Shown here piece after piece: positions 3,306 through 52,852 of a stretch of 64,000 bases of DNA. Positions within the stretch are counted from its first letter, which is position 1, and the number at the start of each line of letters is the position of its first letter. Made by a program: the position numbers and the translations under genes. This DNA is from a virus (taxonomy: Duplodnaviria > Caudoviricetes): the IMG/VR virus record IMGVR_UViG_3300014208_000024, positions 32,001 through 96,000 of that record, one strand, 5' to 3'. The notes beneath the pieces are model-generated. The model had not been told where the DNA came from, made no database searches, and saw nothing but the letters and a program-made list of their open reading frames with translations.

Positions 3306-3354
3306 TTCTTACTTTATTTTAAATAGTTAAAAAAATTGTTTATTTACCAATTTC

Positions 3355-3392
3355 TACGCAAATATATAAAAAAAGTTACATTAAAAGCAAGT
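3355..3392 (-). promoter_or_regulatory. Class I (probably early, host-RNAP) promoter TGTAAC-N-TAnnTTTGCGTA (representative of about 18 copies)
   Basis: Related motif near 5275, 7773, 10300, 10520, 19770, 23670, 25510, 27265, 27777, 30490, 32392, 33670, 38075, 40988, 42338, 45633, 48740; core resembles the Bacteroidota -7 element. Confidence 0.7.
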
Positions 3393-5218: not shown

Positions 5219-5307
5219 CAAAGAACTTATTAACTTATATAAATATAAAAAAAATTTTCATTTTCTATAAGCCTATACGAAAAATTATAAAAAAAGTTTC
5301 AAAAAAA

Positions 5308-5688
5308 TTATTTAAAATATCTAAATCCCTGAAACCCCTTCATAGGAATAGGTTCTATTTTGTGAAAAGGACCAGATCTCTCAATAAATTTTCCACTCCA
5401 ATTCTTTCCAGTGGTTGTACAATTAAAATTTTTTTCGGACATACCAACAATTTTCATCCAACCGATTATCGCTCCATTATATAATAAATAACATTTATTT
5501 CCAGGTTTAGTTTTAGGAAAGTTGTTTACTTTAAAATTCATTACCTGTTTATAATTTTCTACAGCCTTTAATTCCTTTTCATAATCTTTCCATTGAATTG
5601 ATTTTGGAATAGTGACAATAATATCCATTACATTGTCATTTATTCCAGCCAATTCTTGTAACCTGTTTTTATAATTTTCTGTTATCAT
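5308..5688 (-). CDS. Small beta-rich (ASCH/PUA-like) protein with virion-type N-terminal motif
   Basis: TENYKNRLQELAG start; KPGNKCYLLYNGAIIGWMKI. Confidence 0.5.
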   Translation of the reverse strand: MITENYKNRLQELAGINDNVMDIIVTIPKSIQWKDYEKELKAVENYKQVMNFKVNNFPKTKPGNKCYLLYNGAIIGWMKIVGMSEKNFNCTTTGKNWSGKFIERSGPFHKIEPIPMKGFQGFRYFK

Positions 5689-7834: not shown

Positions 7835-8992
7835 ATGGAAAAAATTGAACTTACTTTTTTACGCCCAGATGAAGATACTGGGAACTTTATTTATAAAGGT
7901 ACAGATGGAAAAATATACATTAGTATTGATGGAATAATTCATGATGTAACACAAGAAAGAGAGCCTCTCGGTCCTGTTTACAACACATTTGTAAAACCAG
8001 GAGAACCTGTTTATAATCCAGAAGATAGATTTGGTAGAAATCCAGGTAGTAAAATTCAAACAGAAAACCATAAAAAATTAAAAAACTTTATTCAGGAAGA
8101 ATTAATAAAACTTCACAAAATAACACTTCTTGAAGAAGAAAAAAGACAAATCAATAAAGAACTAAGACTTTTAAAAGAAGGAAAAGAAGATTTGGTGGAT
8201 TATGATGTTCCAGAATGGGCAATGTCTGCTTTAATTAATGGAGATTTAAGTGGATTAGAAGATGAAGATATACAAAAAATAAATTCATTTACCGAATCTG
8301 TTGCAAAAGCTCATGGAAATGCTCATTTTATGCTTGGCGATATTGATGGTGAAGATAATCTTGGATTTAAACACTATAATGATATTGATAATTTAGGAAG
8401 CAATGTTTATAGGTTATATATTAATCCAGACAAAGAAACAAGTTTTAAAGATATACCATTTAACAAAAGATTACAAGGTGGAGAATATTTTGTTAAAGAA
8501 ACAAAAGATGTAGATGCAATGTATAAAAAAGCTGGAATGGAACCCCCACATCCTGGAAAAGGAATACATACTAAAAAATTTCACAAATGTGTTACTTCAG
8601 TTGGTGAAAAAGGTGGAAAAAACCCTTATGCTATCTGTATGTCCTCTTTAGGAAAAAATAAAGCTGTAAAAGCAGATCATAGAACAGAAGAAGGAAGTTC
8701 TCCAATGGTAGATGAAATCAAAAAACCAATTGTTCCAATATCCGAAAAAACAAAGGCTGTATTAAATAAATGGATTCAAGAAAAAGGATCAAAAGAAGCT
8801 GCAGTACAATTGATAAATAGATTAAGCGAAACAGGTATGGTTTCTGATCTTCCTGATAGTATGGAATATGGACAAGGAGTTAACAAAATTGAAGCTTTGT
8901 TAAAAAGTGGAAATTTAGATCAAGCATTTCATCTTGCAAAATCTCTAGCAAAAAAATTAGAGAGAAAAGCAATGAAAGACTTTGGATTTTAA
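7835..8992 (+). CDS. Multi-domain hypothetical protein (probable virion protein)
   Basis: ORF; internal KLKNFIQEELIKLHK motif similar to 49260 and 36985. Confidence 0.65.
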   Translation: MEKIELTFLRPDEDTGNFIYKGTDGKIYISIDGIIHDVTQEREPLGPVYNTFVKPGEPVYNPEDRFGRNPGSKIQTENHKKLKNFIQEELIKLHKITLLEEEKRQINKELRLLKEGKEDLVDYDVPEWAMSALINGDLSGLEDEDIQKINSFTESVAKAHGNAHFMLGDIDGEDNLGFKHYNDIDNLGSNVYRLYINPDKETSFKDIPFNKRLQGGEYFVKETKDVDAMYKKAGMEPPHPGKGIHTKKFHKCVTSVGEKGGKNPYAICMSSLGKNKAVKADHRTEEGSSPMVDEIKKPIVPISEKTKAVLNKWIQEKGSKEAAVQLINRLSETGMVSDLPDSMEYGQGVNKIEALLKSGNLDQAFHLAKSLAKKLERKAMKDFGF

Positions 8993-9031
8993 AAAGAAAA
9001 CAAAAAAGCCCCATCTCTGGGGCTTTTCCTT

Positions 9032-9289
9032 TTAAACATTTGGATTAACCAATTTCTGATCAACCCATTTTCCATTTTGTAAAACTTTGTTGACTTTTTC
9101 AACTCTTATTTCCCAAGAATTTGGAAAATCAGCCAACCTCGTTCTTTTTTTAGCTTCTTTGAGTGCCTCAATCTGAGCTTCGTGATATCTTTCACGTTTC
9201 TTAGATTCAGTTTCCACAAAGAAGTGTGGAGCCTCGTAACCCATTCTATGGATTGAACGTACCTTCCACAACCTGATTGTTTGATACAT
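9032..9289 (-). CDS. Hypothetical protein
   Basis: ORF ending at bidirectional terminator. Confidence 0.65.
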   Translation of the reverse strand: MYQTIRLWKVRSIHRMGYEAPHFFVETESKKRERYHEAQIEALKEAKKRTRLADFPNSWEIRVEKVNKVLQNGKWVDQKLVNPNV

Positions 9290-9519
9290 AAAAATTATGT
9301 AGATTTGATCCTAACATAAATTTTCTAATCAGGTTGAATTAAAGAATGTAGAGTTTTTTGTTTTTTTAATCATAGGAATTTTTTTTCAAACAAATTTCTT
9401 AAGTGGATTTTTCCACCTTTGTCTTAAAAGACTCTTTAAAATAGATATAAATATCTTCCTACTATAATAAATAGTAAAAAAAAATCTCAACCCTTTCGAA
9501 TTGAGATTTTTATAAAACC

Positions 9520-10250
9520 CTGAGATTATAGGTTTAGTGAGTCAACTTTCGGGGGATTATTGGTTCCCCACCTTATCCACATACCTTGCGGCATGTACCA
9601 ACTCAATCTCGATTGGTTAGACCAATCACCTCTTTCGTCATAAACTACTCTACTGCTACTACCGCCATAACAAGAGTGCCCCCCTGCCATAACATTTCAC
9701 AATAATCCGTTAAACCTTGCGAGTCAAACGTCCCCAGTTCAACCGAAGTTGCCAGGATCTGAGAGACCTTTCGCCTATAACGCCAGCGGAACTTTTGCTT
9801 GCTTGAATTTTTTTCATAAAATTGAAGTTGTGCTTTTAATTGAAGATGTGCCGCTGGAACAGCTTCGTTCCTTTTGGGAACGAAATACTATACACCCTCT
9901 GCGCCCTTTTGCATCGGTACGCTCTCACCTTCGCCGCCCTGTAACTCTTACGAGAACGAGAACTCCAAAGATAAATGGAACACGCTCTAAAGCTTGCTAA
10001 ACCTTGAACATTATTCCTCGGCTTTTCCTATTGCCCCTTTCGGAGATCAACCGCCTCAAGCACTTCAGAGACGATATTTCACTCAGCAGTTGCCCTTGTG
10101 AAATGTACTAACCTATTGTATGCTCGACTTCTTTTCAAAAGCGACAAGATATTAACCTCGCCTTTATCCTGGTCACCCAGTTTATTTTCCTGACCCTTTC
10201 GGATCAGGCTTGACCACCAGTAGGTTGTCAACGACAGCACACTGCCATAA
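9520..10250 (-). ncRNA. Large structured ncRNA, GOLLD-like (about 730 nt)
   Basis: GC-rich non-coding island with many GNRA/UUCG hairpins, own promoter, boxA and terminator; size and tRNA-proximal phage context fit GOLLD. Confidence 0.6.
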
Positions 10251-10370
10251 ATTTTTTATCAATATTTTAAAGAACGTATCTTACTTAATTTTCTACTCTA
10301 TACGCAAAGATAAGAAAAAAGTTTCAAAAAAACAAGTTTTTTTTATTTTTTTTTTAAAAAACTTTTTTTA

Positions 10371-10454
10371 AGAGACGTAACCAGGCTGCTCAACCACTAC
10401 CCTTGCTTTCTTCCGAACCTGGGGGAGTTCGTAGGAGCCTGCCTGTTACGCTTT
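10371..10454 (-). ncRNA. ffs: Small SRP (4.5S) RNA
   Basis: Long hairpin with CAGGTTC-GGAA-GAAAGCA domain IV motif; boxA and promoter upstream. Confidence 0.85.
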
Positions 10455-10592
10455 ATCTTAACTATATAAAGAACCTTTGTGAATGTAAATATTTAAAAAA
10501 ATCTTATTTACACACATCTATACGGAAAAAATTTAAAAAGGTTACAAGAAACAAACATTTTTTTTAATATTTATTATAAATACATTTATATA

Positions 10593-10982
10593 ATGAAAGA
10601 AAATCTAAGAAGCCTTATTAGAGAAGAAGTATCAAAACTATTTGAAAATTGGGAAGATGATTATATAAGCTCATTTGAATATGAAGATATTCCAGATATG
10701 CAACCAGGAGGAGAAGCTCATAAATCATTTTTAAGAGATCTAGAAAAAGAACCAGAAATGGGAACTTATAAAGAACCAACTGAACAGGAATTGGAAAATA
10801 TAATTCAAGGATTACAACAAGCAAATTTAGAATTACCAAGCGATCAAGAATTAATTAATCAAGCAGAAGAAGATATGCAAAGAAAATTAAACAATTCCGA
10901 AATAGAAAAAATAAAAAGAACTAAAAAAAGAATGGAAAAAATTGCTGGAGCAGGAACATTTAATGAATCTCAAACAATATAA
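10593..10982 (+). CDS. Hypothetical acidic protein, N-terminal LRSLIREEV motif
   Basis: ORF. Confidence 0.7.
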   Translation: MKENLRSLIREEVSKLFENWEDDYISSFEYEDIPDMQPGGEAHKSFLRDLEKEPEMGTYKEPTEQELENIIQGLQQANLELPSDQELINQAEEDMQRKLNNSEIEKIKRTKKRMEKIAGAGTFNESQTI

Positions 10983-10984
10983 TT

Positions 10985-11680
10985 ATGAAAAATTTTATCA
11001 GAAAAATTATAAAAAAACAAATAAACATTTTATTTGAAAACTCCTTAGAAGAACTAAACTCTGGACTCACAAGAGATCAAAAACAAATTGATATGGCAAG
11101 GAGACTTATGGGAGATGATTCAATTATTGTTTTAAACAAATTAGACTTTGGAGAAGAATTAACTTTCAGTGAAATGGAAGAAGCAAGAGACAAATATCTT
11201 GCAGATTATATATTCGCAAAGGCAAAATTAAACGGAAAAAGAAAAGTTGTTAATCCAATAAACCTAGAAGACTTAGAAGCTATATTTAATGTAAAAGGAA
11301 ACGTTTTAGATGGATATATGAATATATTAGTTAATAAATTTTCAAACGTCGAACAAATAAGCGATCTGGAAAGAAGCGCTTTGTTAAACATTGGAGGAGT
11401 AGATACCCCAACTAATGCAAGCAATGAAATAGCAAAAAAATATATCATTAAAATGCTTTTAAACTTAGATGTTCCTCAAGCTGGAGACAATAAGTGGACA
11501 AGAAATGATAGCATAGAAGCACACAAAGCTTACCAAATTGCAATGACAGATGAAGAATTTAGAAATATTGTTGAGAAAGTTCTGCAAAGAAGTGGAAAAC
11601 AAAATTCTAGATTATATAGAAAATTGAAAAAACTTTCAATTCCTCCAGTACCAGAAAAACCACTGGAAGAAATAAATTAA
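10985..11680 (+). CDS. Hypothetical protein, N-terminal IRKIIKKQI motif
   Basis: ORF. Confidence 0.7.
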   Translation: MKNFIRKIIKKQINILFENSLEELNSGLTRDQKQIDMARRLMGDDSIIVLNKLDFGEELTFSEMEEARDKYLADYIFAKAKLNGKRKVVNPINLEDLEAIFNVKGNVLDGYMNILVNKFSNVEQISDLERSALLNIGGVDTPTNASNEIAKKYIIKMLLNLDVPQAGDNKWTRNDSIEAHKAYQIAMTDEEFRNIVEKVLQRSGKQNSRLYRKLKKLSIPPVPEKPLEEIN

Positions 11681-11715
11681 CAAAAAACCCCCAAATTTCT
11701 CTGGGGGTTTTCTTT

Positions 11716-12099
11716 TTATAAACCGTATTTTCTGAAATAAGCCGTATTTGACATACTGGCATGTTCACTAGAACCACCCTTATCAAGAATGTAAAGTTTA
11801 AATTCTTCTGTGTCTAATTCAATTTCAGACTCAACTTCCATTTCAAACATCTTAATAAAGTCATCAAACATACCAACTCTATCAATTGGTTCAACTAAAC
11901 TTAAATGAAGTCCATTTTTCCCTTCTTCTAAGTCTTTTTTAATCTGCTCTAACTGTGATAAACCCTCAAGTTTATAAGCCTTTTTTGCTTTTGCATACTC
12001 AACAATGTGATTTTCTTTGTTTTGTAACAAGGCAGCAATAACCTCTTTCGTTTTTACTTTGATTTTTCTTTGCATAATTCTAGAAATTGGTGTTCCCAT
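11716..12099 (-). CDS. Hypothetical protein
   Basis: ORF; start moved to MGTPIS. Confidence 0.7.
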   Translation of the reverse strand: MGTPISRIMQRKIKVKTKEVIAALLQNKENHIVEYAKAKKAYKLEGLSQLEQIKKDLEEGKNGLHLSLVEPIDRVGMFDDFIKMFEMEVESEIELDTEEFKLYILDKGGSSEHASMSNTAYFRKYGL

Positions 12100-12220
12100 A
12101 ATTTTATTTTTAATTATATGCAAATATATAAAATAATTATTATAATACAAAATAAATAGCAAACTTTTTAAGTTCAACTTCAATTATCGTTTTTTATAAT
12201 ATTTATATAAAAAATAAATT

Positions 12221-13027
12221 ATGAATAAATGTTTAAATTGTGAAAAAGAAACAAAAAATGAAAAATTTTGTTCTATAAGTTGCCAAAATAAATTTCAAAA
12301 ATCAAAACAAATTGATAAAAGACTGGGATTATTTATTGAGTTTACAATTAAGTGTTTTAAATGTGGAGGTTCGCTCGTTGTTAGAGAAAGAGAAAAATTA
12401 TTCCCACAAAAAGAAAAATACTATTGTAGTAGAAATTGTGCTAATTCAAAACCTCATAGTGATAATACAAAAAATAAAATTAGAAAAAAAGTCAAAGATT
12501 TTATAAGAAAAAATCCAGATAAATATGGGAAGGGCGTTGTGAAAATAATTTGTAAAAAATGTCTTAAAGAGTTCGTTGTTCCTTATGGACAAAGAGATAG
12601 ACAGTTTTGTTGTAAAAAATGTGCTTCTGAATGGATGAAAAATTCTCCTTTATCACAAACAACTGGGTTGTTATCTTCACAAATACAAAAAAAATCAAGA
12701 AGAAGTAAAAACGAAATGTATTTTGCTGAATTATGTAAATCTTATTTTAATAAAGTTTTAACCAACGAACCAATGTTTAATGGTTGGGATGCAGATGTAA
12801 TAATTGAAGATATAAAAACTGCAGTTCTTTGGAATGGAAAATGGCACTATGAAAAAATAACAAAAAACCATTCTGTTAAACAGGTTCAAAATAGAGATAA
12901 AATAAGAATTAAGGAAATAGAGTTAAAAAACTACAAATATTATATAATAAAAGATATGGGAAGATATGATTTAAAATTTGTTAATAAAGAATTTGAAAAA
13001 TTTATAAAACATGTTGGAAAAATATAG
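12221..13027 (+). CDS. Zn-ribbon plus PD-(D/E)XK (Vsr-like) endonuclease
   Basis: CxxC/CSxxC repeats; SKNE...WDADVII...WNGKWHY. Confidence 0.75.
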   Translation: MNKCLNCEKETKNEKFCSISCQNKFQKSKQIDKRLGLFIEFTIKCFKCGGSLVVREREKLFPQKEKYYCSRNCANSKPHSDNTKNKIRKKVKDFIRKNPDKYGKGVVKIICKKCLKEFVVPYGQRDRQFCCKKCASEWMKNSPLSQTTGLLSSQIQKKSRRSKNEMYFAELCKSYFNKVLTNEPMFNGWDADVIIEDIKTAVLWNGKWHYEKITKNHSVKQVQNRDKIRIKEIELKNYKYYIIKDMGRYDLKFVNKEFEKFIKHVGKI

Positions 13028-13035
13028 TAACAGTG

Positions 13036-13112
13036 TAGCAACAGTGGGATTCGAACCCACAAAAATCCTCCGCCTTATGAGAGCGTTGCGCTACCAATTG
13101 CGCCATGTTGCC
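13036..13112 (-). tRNA. tRNA-Met or Ile2 (CAU)
   Basis: CGCT-CTCATAA-GGCG. Confidence 0.8.
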
Positions 13113-13120
13113 ATTAAAAT

Positions 13121-13329
13121 AATGATGTGTGAAAGCCTCCTACTTTCATAATCTCACTGACTTACACAGTTAGAGAGTCTCGGAATTTCACAACAAAGAC
13201 AATTACAATCAAACAAATGCTAATTCTTTACGAAATGAGCACCTTGCTTTAACCGTGTTGCCAAACACATCGCCTTTGTTGATCTACTGCTGAACTCTTA
13301 ATTACAGCTCTTATGCAAACACATCACTT
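13121..13329 (-). ncRNA. Rod-shaped ncRNA with central bubble, 6S-like candidate
   Basis: Closing helix GTGATGTGT/ACACATCAT, 13-bp CAACAAAGGCGAT/ATTGTCTTTGTTG, symmetric 11-nt bubble. Confidence 0.5.
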
Positions 13330-13408
13330 GCTTAAAAACAATTCATGCATTAATTGTTAGAAAGCGGGGGAAACACTCTCTCCTTTGCAAGTAAAGATTG
13401 TGAATCCT

Positions 13409-14311
13409 TTATCTTATAATATTTAATTCCTTTTCAGTCCATACCTCAAATGGTATGTTATTTTTTTTACAATATTTTTTAACAGCTTTAATTTTTTCTT
13501 TATTATTCCATCTATTTAACAATCTTTTTGGCTTAACTTCAACTATTTTTTTTAGTTCTTCTTTGTAAAAAATTTCAAAATCTATAATTGTACTTCTTTT
13601 TCCATTCCTATATTTTATATTGTATGGCTCGTAATTATAATAAAGAACATTATCATCTTTTTCTAATATTTCCATAGCTATTAACTCATAAGAACTTCTG
13701 TATTTTATTTCTTTTTTATTTTTATTACTATAATAAATTCCACCTTTATATTTTTTATGTGATGGAGAAATCCCAAACATTCCATTGCTTTTTCCGCTAT
13801 TTTTTCCTTTTATAGAATTTGATATTTTCTTTTTCACATCCTCGCTTTGTGATGCACATTTTTTAGAACAATAAATGTTTTCATGCTTATTAACTTCTTT
13901 TCCACAAAATTTACATCTTGGTTTTTCTTTTATATTTTTTTTCTTACCTGCTTCAATACGCTCTATTAAAAATCCAAACGCACCATTTTCTCTAATGCGT
14001 TTTTTTATAGAATCTCCTATGTTTTTTTTCGTTTTTTCTGATTGAATTCTTTTGTTTGCACAACTTCTAGAACAAAACATAGAATATTTTTTTTTCTCAA
14101 AATCTGTTTTTTTTAAAATAATCTCATATTTTTTTCCACATCTCAAACATCCAAACTCATACTCTAATCTTTCTATTTTTCTACTATTAGATGCTTTTTG
14201 TATCATGTTTTTTTTGTTTGGGTTTTTTTTACAATTAATTATATGACCACCAAGTTGTTGTTGCTTGTCATATTTTATTAATTGTCCACAATATTTACAT
14301 TTTTTTTCCAT
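13409..14311 (-). CDS. Homing endonuclease, Zn-ribbons plus TnsA-like PD-(D/E)XK domain
   Basis: YRSSYE...YEPYNIKY...IDF...IVEVKP. Confidence 0.8.
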   Translation of the reverse strand: MEKKCKYCGQLIKYDKQQQLGGHIINCKKNPNKKNMIQKASNSRKIERLEYEFGCLRCGKKYEIILKKTDFEKKKYSMFCSRSCANKRIQSEKTKKNIGDSIKKRIRENGAFGFLIERIEAGKKKNIKEKPRCKFCGKEVNKHENIYCSKKCASQSEDVKKKISNSIKGKNSGKSNGMFGISPSHKKYKGGIYYSNKNKKEIKYRSSYELIAMEILEKDDNVLYYNYEPYNIKYRNGKRSTIIDFEIFYKEELKKIVEVKPKRLLNRWNNKEKIKAVKKYCKKNNIPFEVWTEKELNIIR

Positions 14312-14365
14312 TTTTTTGTATTTATTTTACTATAAATATCAGCAAAAAATAAAAATTGAACTCTG

Positions 14366-14437
14366 AGCGGTATACTGGATTTAAACCAGCGACCTTCACA
14401 TTGGCAATGTGACATTCTATCACTGAACTAATACCGC
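14366..14437 (-). tRNA. tRNA-Gly(GCC)
   Basis: TCACA-TTGCCAA-TGTGA. Confidence 0.9.
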
Positions 14438-14440
14438 ATA

Positions 14441-14607
14441 AAATTAGGGAAATTTCGAACTAAGCATTTTTCTTTTTCTGCCCCATTTAACCACTCTGGA
14501 ACCCCCCCGAATTACTCCTTATTTGTCGAGGGGGATGGATTCGAACCACCGAAGGCTTACGCCAGCAGATTCCTTATCGAAGTAACTTAATTTGTTACCA
14601 CTAATTT
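14441..14607 (-). ncRNA. Y-RNA-like element Y4 (permuted tRNA-Tyr-type body, no anticodon loop)
   Basis: Family stem; long variable arm, T-arm, acceptor, D-arm CAGAGTGGTTAAA. Confidence 0.75.
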
Positions 14608-15387
14608 ATATTTTTTATTCCAATTTTCTATTTTGTTTTTTAAATCATCTAATGAAATAGAACATTTTTTATTTTTACTTGAATTATTTGAATGAACCAT
14701 TAATTTGCAATTTGCTGGATGAGAAATAATATTTGAATCAATTTTTTGTTTAAAACCTTCCGAAATTGAAAACATGTGATCTCTACTAATTCCATTTAAG
14801 TTATTCCCTTTATTCTTTGCACAATACCATCCAAATTTTTTAATCAACTCAAAGTCAAATTCTTCTACGAAATCTTTTAGATTAAAATTAAATCGACACT
14901 CTGATTTATATATATTAAATTCAGTCATCTTTTTTTTATCAAAAATTTTTCTACAATTTATCCCACAAAATTTATTTTTTCTTTTTTTAAATGGCAAAAT
15001 AGCATTACACTCTAAACAAAAATTTGGATTTTCATAATATTTGTCAATACCATTTTTTTTAATATTAGCATTTTTAATGTTTTCTTTTGCTTTGTCACTA
15101 AAAACAACTTTTCTGCCAGTATTTTTCTTATTGTTAAATGATGTAGAACAACTTAAAGAACAAAAAGTATTAAACCTTTTTTCGTATGAAATTAAATTAC
15201 CACAATGTTTACATTTTTTAATATCAATTTTAGGTTTATGAAATTCATTATAACAAGTTAAGGAACAAAAATGTTTTCTTCCCATTTTTTCACTTCTTTT
15301 AAATTCTGTTTTTGTTTTTTCAAACTCATTTTTACAATTTTCGCAAATTATTAAAATTGTTTTTCTATTATTCTTAAAAATTTTCAT
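14587..15387 (-). CDS. Zn-ribbon HNH-like homing endonuclease
   Basis: CxxC repeats; ISRDHMFSI...HPANCKL. Confidence 0.75.
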   Translation of the reverse strand: MKIFKNNRKTILIICENCKNEFEKTKTEFKRSEKMGRKHFCSLTCYNEFHKPKIDIKKCKHCGNLISYEKRFNTFCSLSCSTSFNNKKNTGRKVVFSDKAKENIKNANIKKNGIDKYYENPNFCLECNAILPFKKRKNKFCGINCRKIFDKKKMTEFNIYKSECRFNFNLKDFVEEFDFELIKKFGWYCAKNKGNNLNGISRDHMFSISEGFKQKIDSNIISHPANCKLMVHSNNSSKNKKCSISLDDLKNKIENWNKKYKLVVTN

Positions 15388-19713: not shown

Positions 19714-19862
19714 CTTTATTATGTTTTTATATTATTAAATATCTCAAAAAAAATTGTTTTCACAGATTCATACGCAAAGTTACAAAAAAAGTTACATAAA
19801 AAACAAGTTTTTTTCAAAGTTTTTTTAAAATATTTTACAACTTGTTGATTATTAAACTATTA

Positions 19863-40949: not shown

Positions 40950-41033
40950 AACATTAATAAATATACAAAAAAATTCTTTTTTCAATCTATACGGCAAATA
41001 TATAAAAAAGTTACATAAAAACCAAATTATTTT

Positions 41034-42073: not shown

Positions 42074-42251
42074 TTTTCATATTCTTTTATTTGCAAGAAC
42101 AAAACTTGGTTTTCCCAGGCAAACTGAATTGTTTTTGTGTTAATTCTTTCTGTAATTTGTGCACTCATATTATATTTTTAAAACAATATAAAAAAAAATC
42201 CCCCCAAAATCAAGAGATTTCAGAGGAATTTTAGAAACGAAACGAAACGAG

Positions 42252-42324
42252 CCCGACCAGAGGGATTCGAACCCACAACCATCTGTTTTAGGGACAGTTG
42301 CTCTGCCAATTGAGCTATGGAAGG
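42252..42324 (-). tRNA. tRNA-like gene with CUA (amber) anticodon, degenerate acceptor
   Basis: CTGT-CCCTAAA-ACAG; two acceptor mismatches, C33. Confidence 0.55.
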
Positions 42325-43290: not shown

Positions 43291-43335
43291 AATAAAATTT
43301 TAATTTAAGTTATAACCGCACAACATGTGCAATCG

Positions 43336-43409
43336 AAGGAAAGACAGGACTCGAACCTGCGACCAAATCGGTTCTAGAAACCGTTGCTCTGCCACTGAGC
43401 TACATTCCC
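43336..43409 (-). tRNA. tRNA with CUA (amber) anticodon
   Basis: CGGT-TTCTAGA-ACCG; canonical D and T arms. Confidence 0.7.
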
Positions 43410-45588: not shown

Positions 45589-45736
45589 AACTTCTTTTTT
45601 AATAAATATTCAAAAATTTTGTTTTCTACCAATCTATACGCAAAGATATAAAAAAAGTTACATAAAAAGCAAGAAAAAATAGTTTTATTTTACAACTTTT
45701 TATGTAACTCTTTGATTTTCAAATATAAAAATTTAT

Positions 45737-51254: not shown

Positions 51255-52852
51255 TTAAAACTCAATATAATTCTTTATTGTATCAACAAGTGCATTTTTA
51301 TCTTGTTCAAGAATTTTCATCAAGTCAAATATTTTATCACTCCAACCCGCCAGTGCACATACTTGTGATTCTGGAAATTGCATAGTTCCATACCCATTTA
51401 AATCAAAAGAATATACATAAGGATTACATTTATATCTTTCTTTATACGCTTTAAAATCTGATGTTGGTGCGTGATTTCCAATCCAACCCTGTAGGTCTGA
51501 AAGAATTATTAGCCTTTCATATTTCTTATTAATAGCTCTGAAGATAGAGTGAAAATCTGTTCCACCATCAGTAAATCTGATATTCTTAGCAATAGTCAAA
51601 ACACTATCTGAAGGATTCAAGTTTTGGTATCTTGCATTGCTATCGAAAGTCATAAAATCTGAGTTATTGCTCTTTACTATGATAGCCGAGAACAATCCTC
51701 CTATTTGTGCAGGTTTTCCTTGCATAGAACCAGATACGTCAAGTATAACTAATGTATCTCCTTCAAATATTGGAACGTTAGAACAAGAAATATCAACTGC
51801 ATTGTTTAAAGCTACCATAACTTGTCTAACTTCTTTTGAAGAATTACTAGACATAGCTTCAATTTCTTTCATTGCTGTATCATATCTGAAAGGCAACACC
51901 AATGAATTTTTGATAGCTCTTTCGTTAACAAGCAATCCGCATGCTGTTTTAACTTCACCAGGAGCTTGTTCAATTATGTTTCTCAAGTTTCTTAACAAGT
52001 TGAAGTATGGCATTTTTCCACTATTAAGCATTTCTTTCCATACATCAGCTTTAAGTTGTGCTTTTTCGTTTGCACTTGAAGCTTCTTGCCCAGCTTTTGA
52101 CATTTTTGCTTCAGTGGTTTCGGTGTTTTTCAACATACCTGCCATTAAAGCATCCAATGCTGGTAATTGAACTGTTCCCGTTTTTTGTCTTTTAACAGGA
52201 GACAATATTTCTTTTACTTTTGCAATTTTTGCAGCATTTTTCTTAGAATTCTTGTTCAAACTTTTTAATTTTGCTTCAAGCAAAGAAATGTAATCTTCCT
52301 TTGAAACTTCAACAAAACCATTTTTTTCGGTTGGAACAGGGTGTACAAGATTAACAACGTCAATTAATGTAACTTCCTTGTTTTCCATTTTGTACTTAGC
52401 CAATTGGTAAGCATCAAATTTTCCAAAAGCTTCAGAAAACCCTTTTTGCATTGATTTTGACAAAGATTTGTTTTTTTGACCAAAGTAGTATGCAATAGTT
52501 TCTACCATGTCGTCAGGTCTACGAACAATAGCCTTGTAAAAATTCTTAGCCCATGATTCTCCAGACAATTTCTTTGCAAGTTCTGCAGCCAATACGTGAG
52601 TAATGGAACGCATACCGAATTCTTGTCTTGCATAAACAGCTGCTTTAGCTGCAAACAAAGGATTAACACGATCTAATACACTTTTAAGTCTAGAAAGACC
52701 ATCAGTTGCTTTTTCGTAGAATTTATCTTCAACGAAAGAAGTTAAAAGAATAGACACCAATTCTAACTCTGCTGATTGTTTGTAGCTTCGCCACCAGCTA
52801 AGTTAACAGTTTTGGTAACTGCTTTTGGGGTTGTTTTGCTAAATTTTGACAT
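51255..52852 (-). CDS. rsr: Ro60/TROVE-vWA RNA-binding protein, one base short of continuity near 52786
   Basis: NLAGGEA|YKQSAELELVS, FDAYQLAKY, NLLRNLRN, DVSGSM, ILSD; frame break after codon 23. Confidence 0.85.

Follow-up and report, generated by a model that had tools for sequence, protein, structure and literature searches.

An SRP (4.5S-type) RNA gene of distinct short form in a giant tailed phage and its relatives

Does a giant phage encode its own SRP RNA, and what would such an RNA do in an infected cell? The question is raised by a stretch of 64,000 nucleotides (the window in what follows), which comprises bases 32001-96000 of a 372,283-bp IMG/VR virus record of a groundwater giant phage. 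The initial annotation of this stretch placed a phage-encoded SRP RNA at 10371-10454, with no strand given, and suggested a search with the Rfam family Bacteria_small_SRP (RF00169) as a check. This search was positive and agrees with the proposed position within one base. The complete model (positions 1-97) matched the minus strand at 10370-10453 with 42.3 bits, which is marginal relative to the gathering score of 40, at E = 9.8e-6 when the 64-kb window was searched and 6.1e-8 when the search was confined to 401 nt, and a search of the whole genome returned the identical hit. The domain IV elements that had been claimed are intact and can be read directly on the minus strand: CAGG at 10418-10421, the GGAA tetraloop at 10411-10414 and AGCA at 10404-10407, with a 3-bp UUC/GAA helix between them. 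A 96-nt stretch folded into a single long hairpin of -32.4 kcal/mol (z = -2.9 vs shuffles). We rejected a chance hairpin on account of the local E-value of 6e-8 and because the top of the hairpin is nearly identical to cellular SRP RNAs. The feature is a genuine, conserved SRP (4.5S-type) RNA gene of a giant tailed phage (Table 1).

The RNA shares with the bacterial small SRP RNA (4.5S RNA, gene ffs; RF00169) the single long hairpin, the symmetric loop formed by CAGG and AGCA, the 3-bp helix capped by GGAA and, on the 5' side, an asymmetric loop rich in A. It differs from the members of this family in that it is encoded by a virus that lacks Ffh and FtsY, measures only 84 nt and has its distal GUGC replaced. 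Its surroundings differ as well, with a phage promoter module and a boxA-type leader ahead of it and a GOLLD RNA gene after it. It is thus an RNA of a known family, in a new setting and in a distinct short form. The Ffh M domain is predicted to bind at the domain IV core, and FtsY to make contact there.

Table 1. Position of the SRP RNA gene and of the elements around it (window coordinates).
Feature	Position	Strand	Basis and remarks
Phage SRP (4.5S-type) RNA gene, 84 nt, one long hairpin	10370..10453	(-)	RF00169, fold, homologues
Domain IV core: CAGG, 3-bp helix, GGAA tetraloop, AGCA	10404..10421	(-)	sequence; invariant in three phage copies
Remodelled basal (distal) stem, 3' strand, with a single bulged G	10376..10397	(-)	alignments, folds
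Promoter-like module GTAACC-TTTTT...CCGTATAG	10519..10545	(-)	23 genome copies vs 0.02 in shuffles
Leader hairpin, 8-bp stem, T-rich loop	10484..10512	(-)	between module and boxA, the position of a boxB
Sigma-70-like site TTTACA-17-TATAGT, an alternative promoter; ends 7 nt upstream of the RNA	10461..10489	(-)	consensus scan, 10/12 matches
boxA-like motif GGTTCTTTAT in the 5' leader	10466..10475	(-)	conserved in related phages
Further promoter-like module, located in the AT-rich spacer and serving GOLLD	10299..10325	(-)	same layout in L520
boxA-like motif GTTCTTTAA of the GOLLD module	10267-10275	(-)	GTTCTTTRA scan
GOLLD RNA gene, directly downstream	9517..10262	(-)	RF02032, 226.6 bits for the 3' half 9517-9900
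Terminator-like hairpin and T-run closing the SRP-GOLLD block	9480..9511	(-)	downstream of GOLLD

The carrier is a genuine tailed phage with a genome of 372 kb or more. Its large terminase is a 938-aa ORF that matches terminases in 2,745 phage records, with the best bit scores for Flavobacterium phages. Contamination with host DNA or a prophage flank was considered and rejected, as the SRP gene lies 42 kb inside the 372-kb virus record among phage genes and tRNA arrays. The same sequence is moreover found within a 455,767-bp contig of another assembly (L519; ENA ERZ27249449), which is 100% identical over 7985-14680 of the window (6.7 kb) and was for this reason not counted as independent. Because the sequence sits in this longer contig, the 372-kb record may be incomplete: although rated 100% complete, it may lack about 80 kb, or else the longer contig may be redundant. 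No GenBank phage matched the SRP stretch (50,697 records) or the terminase region at the DNA level.

Relatives of the phage allowed its SRP gene to be compared between lineages. A search of IMG/VR for an exact 22-mer yielded a single further contig, L130 (228,886 bp), whose SRP RNA scores 47.2 bits on RF00169 and lies upstream of a GOLLD RNA (185.9 bits). Protein searches of IMG/VR with a 231-aa neighbour of the gene, an 881-aa ORF, an RF1-like ORF and an alignment of DUF6926 returned nothing or the L130 contig only, and further relatives were obtained instead through a protein database and contig look-ups. Homologues of the gene neighbouring SRP led in this way to L520, with a complete SRP RNA that at 39.8 bits falls just below the RF00169 cut-off of 40, and to L524, a contig that breaks off within the SRP RNA, leaving the leader (module and boxA) and the 5' half of the RNA. 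At the equivalent place in more distant relatives of the neighbouring gene both SRP and GOLLD are absent; the SRP-GOLLD cassette is therefore a lineage-specific accessory, and the wider group can do without the SRP gene.

L130 is syntenic with the window, with DNA identities of about 66-87% in nearby tRNA and coding segments and of 43% and 73% for two neighbouring proteins. In windows of 30 nt, the hairpin core (10376-10433) is 90-97% identical to that of L130, compared with 13-57% in the region upstream; over the whole Rfam match, ends and indels counted, 78 of the 88 columns are identical. The compensatory pairs claimed in the initial annotation were confirmed. Among the three complete phage copies, six of the 29 predicted pairs have compensatory double changes, two of them in the helix that carries the tetraloop (UUC/GAA to UCG/CGA) and one beside the symmetric loop. 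An alignment enlarged by 14 cellular Bacteroidales SRP RNAs gives 13 compensatory pairs out of 32. CAGG, GGAA and AGCA are invariant in the three phage copies. One pair retained in L130 is broken in the window copy (A.A).

This pattern bears on whether the gene is merely carried along, as a piece of host ffs that arrived by illegitimate recombination, or as an attachment-site remnant, and now decays without function. The modest score of the window copy with its one broken pair and the lack of the gene in more distant relatives are in line with such a neutral passenger, and phages can indeed integrate into ffs: phiEf11 has its attB there (PMC12540744). That attachment site was also the sole link between phages and ffs that we found in the literature, in which we found no paper on a phage-encoded SRP RNA. 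The likeness to the present case ends with the link between a phage and the SRP RNA gene, as phiEf11 carries only a 27-nt att core beside an integrase (PMC12540744), whereas here a full, expressed-looking gene is present and a tyrosine integrase (PF00589) had no match in the carrier genome. An attachment-site remnant was rejected for the latter reason, and because the whole hairpin is present, well beyond a 3' att core, with its own leader. Decay is also difficult to reconcile with a core that is far better conserved than the neighbouring proteins, with six compensatory pairs and with a promoter, hairpin and boxA leader conserved ahead of the gene in four lineages. We therefore regard a neutral passenger as very improbable.

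The upper part of the hairpin points to the origin of the gene. Its top 58 nt match the cellular SRP RNA of a Bacteroidales MAG (L150) at 55 of 58 positions in the L130 copy and at 51 of 58 in the window copy (88-95%), and this similarity includes the core flanks typical of Bacteroidales. Five of the closest cellular Bacteroidales or Bacteroidia loci, which were scanned on the family Bacteroidales_small_SRP (RF04183) and scored 92.5-105.7 bits, have the flanks ...CUCCCC-core-AGGGUA... in common. In the flank comparison the closest sequences with a taxon label came from Bacteroidales or Bacteroidia genomes, and the rest were unlabelled genome or metagenome contigs with the same sequence type. 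The 18-mer of the core occurs in cellular SRP RNAs of many phyla and therefore cannot name a host by itself; only the extended flanks indicate Bacteroidales or Bacteroidia. Cellular SRP RNAs of Bacteroidota type were present in the source sample too, as seen in loose contig ends. It is likely that an ancestor of the phage lineage captured the SRP gene from a Bacteroidota-type host and that the base of the hairpin was remodelled afterwards, and the uncultured host of the present phage would by its flanks be of Bacteroidota type. Two other markers were tried. The Bacteroidota-type promoter TTTG-N17-22-TAnnTTTG is not enriched (10 matches vs 8.5 expected) and was therefore not used as host evidence. 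The T9SS sorting domain (PF18962) had no match in this phage, and as the control genomes likewise gave none, this marker was uninformative; the contig of one relative (L496) carries a gene with a T9SS sorting domain. Since the SRP copy retains the sequence type of its source, it offers a simple new host clue for an uncultured giant phage, here pointing to Bacteroidota.

Below the top 58 nt the similarity to the cellular RNA ends. In the cellular RF04183 RNAs the basal stem is formed by GGGUAAGUCUUAUACGA.../...UGCGAUAUAAG..CUUACCC; the phage RNA has instead the shorter GCGUAAYAGG.../...CCUNGUUACGUC. Because this stem is shorter and different, the phage RNA fails on RF04183 (33.8 bits vs a cut-off of 55.2). 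The remodelling includes a site at which cellular RNAs are uniform. On the 3' strand, about 27-31 nt past the tetraloop, GUGC stands in the RF00169 consensus and in each of the 14 cellular Bacteroidales sequences, in the latter as part of GUGCGA (14/14); the phage copies have CUGG (in the window, within the basal stem element of Table 1), CUGU and CUAG at this site.

What this change could mean depends on the two functional ends of the molecule. The tetraloop of cellular SRP RNA serves for docking of the receptor and the distal site activates the GTPases, triggering GTP hydrolysis (PMC5454536). The phage RNA retains the tetraloop element exactly, while with the distal GUGC replaced normal GTPase activation is not assured. 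The catalytic distal base is G83 of E. coli, and the distal site is described by G83, C86 and C87. In the folds a single-base bulge is retained on the 3' strand of the phage RNA, 28-31 nt past the tetraloop and thus roughly at the position of the cellular bulge; a distal site in minimal form may thus be left.

Neither the SRP54 GTPase domain, which is common to Ffh and FtsY, nor the Ffh M domain was found in the carrier genome, and any partner of the RNA must therefore be the Ffh of the host. Most likely the RNA associates with this Ffh and, while infection proceeds, maintains or redirects the targeting of membrane proteins. We infer the following course. The gene is probably transcribed from a standard phage promoter module. 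The transcript would begin with a leader that has a hairpin and a boxA-like motif, such as serves antitermination in rRNA operons, and this leader would then be trimmed off. Nearly unchanged are the top 58 nt, in which the Ffh M domain has its site and FtsY makes its first contact, at the GGAA tetraloop; the basal stem is cut by about 10 nt per strand and rewritten. The RNA would load onto host Ffh and yield a phage-supplied SRP, which could sustain co-translational membrane targeting during infection, when synthesis or stability of the host RNA may fail. Plain supplementation or replacement of the host SRP RNA is the reading that we consider probable, with appreciable room for doubt. It would imply that host 4.5S RNA is limiting, attacked or worth replacing during infection. 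The natural short form, with its intact Ffh-binding top and its rewritten distal stem, provides a ready test of the weight of the distal site in vivo.

The same rewritten stem could be given a less benign interpretation, in which the RNA acts as a decoy. The phage RNA would still bind host Ffh and dock to FtsY, and its distal stem would alter or remove GTPase activation. Host SRP would then be trapped or re-timed, so that insertion of membrane proteins (receptors, defence and envelope proteins) is shut down or targeting is biased to phage proteins. In favour of such a take-over, all three copies have the phage-specific basal stem (GCGUAA.../...UUACGUC), each strand of which lacks about 10 nt relative to the cellular stem, and the GUGC that occurs at this distance from the tetraloop in all the cellular Bacteroidales sequences and in the RF00169 consensus is missing; the distal region is the one that triggers GTP hydrolysis (PMC5454536), and neither Ffh nor FtsY is supplied by the phage. 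The retained bulge on the 3' strand argues against it. Moreover, similarly short SRP RNAs occur naturally in some bacteria, among them mycoplasmas. We consider a take-over possible but unlikely. The same holds for its fuller version, in which an SRP running on a different timer stalls host insertion or favours phage cargo and is made together with GOLLD as a fixed two-RNA cassette, a version that we also doubt. If true, this would be the first case of a virus that manipulates the SRP cycle by way of the RNA subunit.

A gene that supplements host SRP RNA would have to be expressed, and the elements ahead of it suggest how. The initial annotation gave the RNA its own promoter and a boxA, and both claims are supported. 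One promoter candidate is the module at 10519-10545(-), one of 23 genome copies of the pattern G(A/T)AAC(C/T)TTTT, 6-16 nt, CGTA(G/T)(A/G), of which shuffles led us to expect 0.02; the other is the sigma-70-like site at 10461-10489(-), which is not clearly conserved in L130. The module precedes tRNA operons, protein genes, GOLLD and the SRP RNA, and the copies in the window include those at 3353-3379, 5274-5300, 10299-10325, 10519-10545, 19769-19795, 40988-41014 and 45635-45661. In many cases a hairpin with a T-rich loop comes after it, and a hairpin equivalent to that of the SRP leader follows the module in L130, L520 and L524 and at other modules of the genome. The boxA is supported as a conserved motif, GGTTCTTTAT at 10466-10475(-), which has counterparts upstream of the SRP RNA in all four lineages (window, L130, L520 and L524); the order of module, hairpin, GTTCTTT(A/G)A and SRP is alike in these four.

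GTTCTTT(A/G)A resembles the boxA consensus of bacterial rRNA leaders. The window contains 12 copies of GTTCTTTRA, a motif related to GGTTCTTTAT, all on the minus strand, which is the strand of the tRNA and ncRNA genes, compared with 4 expected on both strands (positions 264, 1748, 2644, 2823, 3145, 5218, 10267, 15153, 40573, 40701, 45084 and 50898). This distribution suggests an antitermination of rRNA style for the operons of untranslated RNAs of the phage. As in the leaders of rRNA operons and the nut sites of lambda (boxB hairpin, boxA), a promoter, a hairpin and GTTCTTT(A/G)A stand ahead of untranslated structured RNAs, with the difference that the units here are phage SRP, GOLLD and tRNA genes and that the motif is boxA-like by its letters. 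Transcripts would start at the module, about 65 nt before the SRP hairpin. Transcription from the module would therefore give the RNA a leader of about 65 nt, to be removed. The 5' leader of E. coli 4.5S RNA is removed by RNase P, and by analogy the phage leader could be processed in the same manner. In L130 an extra, GC-richer insert of about 110 nt lies between the boxA-like motif and the SRP RNA (~5352-5470(-)); it has no Rfam match and may be another small structured RNA.

Transcript contigs were searched for the block. A freshwater metatranscriptome (X2) contains contigs that are at least 99% identical to GOLLD and none over 10371-10454, which as contigs cannot show absence. Contigs of two other datasets (X3, X4) and small contigs of a further one (X1) were considered as transcripts of the phage SRP gene and rejected, as they cover only 10397-10435 and their loose ends (...AAGACTTACCC) are those of cellular Bacteroidota-type SRP RNAs.

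Downstream of the gene lies the GOLLD RNA gene. In the window, L130 and L520 the two genes form a tandem, SRP then GOLLD on the same strand. After the SRP hairpin follows UCUCUU (UCUUUUU in L130), then an AT-rich spacer, the second module with its boxA, and GOLLD; the complete order of module, hairpin, boxA, SRP, spacer with second module and boxA, and GOLLD is identical in the three. The conservation profile of GOLLD against L130 runs at 70-93% as far as about 10262, and the conserved 5' half of GOLLD would by this profile start near that position. The fixed pairing with SRP RNA provides a new handle on GOLLD, an RNA of unknown function.

The tandem could also mean that the hairpin is kept as a part of the two-RNA cassette and not as an SRP RNA: as a 5' stabiliser, as a processing signal or terminator, or as a partner of GOLLD. 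The position directly upstream of GOLLD on the same strand in 3/3 complete loci would fit, as would the lack of a canonical terminator between the two genes and the boxA motifs, which suggest read-through. However, the SRP domain IV motif is found in none of 118 other GOLLD-bearing viral loci (1.16 Mb), the spacer between the genes has a promoter module and boxA of its own, and no GOLLD was found within the approximately 3 kb scanned around the SRP RNAs of other huge phages. Moreover, conservation falls on precisely the bases by which Ffh binding is defined, and at these the phage RNA agrees with cellular SRP RNAs. We consider such an accessory role for GOLLD improbable.

The gene can also be compared with the translation-related RNA cargo of huge phages. 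Huge phages carry parts of the translation machinery. The SRP RNA resembles their tRNA arrays and tmRNA in being a host-type housekeeping RNA in a very large phage, and differs from them in that its role is in protein targeting and not in decoding or ribosome rescue; it would extend this cargo to co-translational membrane targeting. The carrier genome has 46 tRNA genes, and tmRNA was not found in it. Over bases 1-350,600 of the genome Rfam returned only tRNAs, one GOLLD RNA and one SRP RNA, with no RNase P RNA or 6S RNA. The theme of replacing host ncRNAs, into which the initial annotation had fitted the gene, is narrow in this light, as the first 350.6 kb are without tmRNA, RNase P RNA and 6S RNA. 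Three tRNA genes of the window are of suppressor type (1634-1706, 42251-42324 and 43335-43409, all (-)), one with anticodon UUA, which reads TAA, and two with CUA (TAG). Between tRNA genes lies a 300-aa ORF (13409-14311(-)) with a TnsA-like endonuclease N-terminal domain and a weak NUMOD3 motif, which is probably a homing-type endonuclease.

The cargo of tRNA genes in phages has been read as a counter to tRNA-cleaving defences. Host SRP RNA, which the initial annotation took for a plausible nuclease target, could be cleaved during infection by a toxin of a defence system or of a competitor, and the phage copy with its changed stem would replace the host RNA or escape cleavage. A functional top that is kept and a basal stem that is changed are what a cleavage site in the stem would lead one to expect, and many tRNA genes are present in the same genome. 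On the other hand, the literature searched yielded no report of a nuclease with SRP RNA as its target, none was identified in the present analysis, and within the Rfam scope given above the phage holds no spare tmRNA, RNase P RNA or 6S RNA. A spare part against a nuclease seems to us very unlikely, and plain supplementation or replacement remains the preferred reading.

SRP RNAs recur in other large phages. IMG/VR was scanned for the motif and 96 records were then searched with RF00169, which yielded an identical RNA in two records of 372 kb and 497 kb (57.7 bits), one in a 438-kb record (40.4 bits), one in a 290-kb record classed as provirus (58.7 bits) and weaker hits in three records of 97, 115 and 436 kb; a score of 36.4 bits was also recorded among the large phage records. 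The hits in L121/L122, L123, L124, L372, L374 and L375 (97-497 kb) belong to unrelated phages with SRP RNAs that differ from the window copy, and all of these adjoin tRNA genes or sit in tRNA arrays. An SRP54-type GTPase or M domain was found in none of five other phage records that bear an SRP RNA, L130 included. The SRP RNA of L375 is a 49-nt minimal form.

Two further ORFs of the window deserve mention. A 501-aa ORF at 51255-52760(-) has a TROVE (Ro60-like) domain (70.9 bits) and would place a Ro-type RNA-binding protein near the ncRNA-rich region. Beside the SRP gene, at 10593-11680(+), lie ORFs of 129 and 231 aa in different frames, with a TAA at 10980-10982; they correspond to a single 356-aa ORF in L130, and their relatives occur in forms of about 230 aa and of 336-545 aa.
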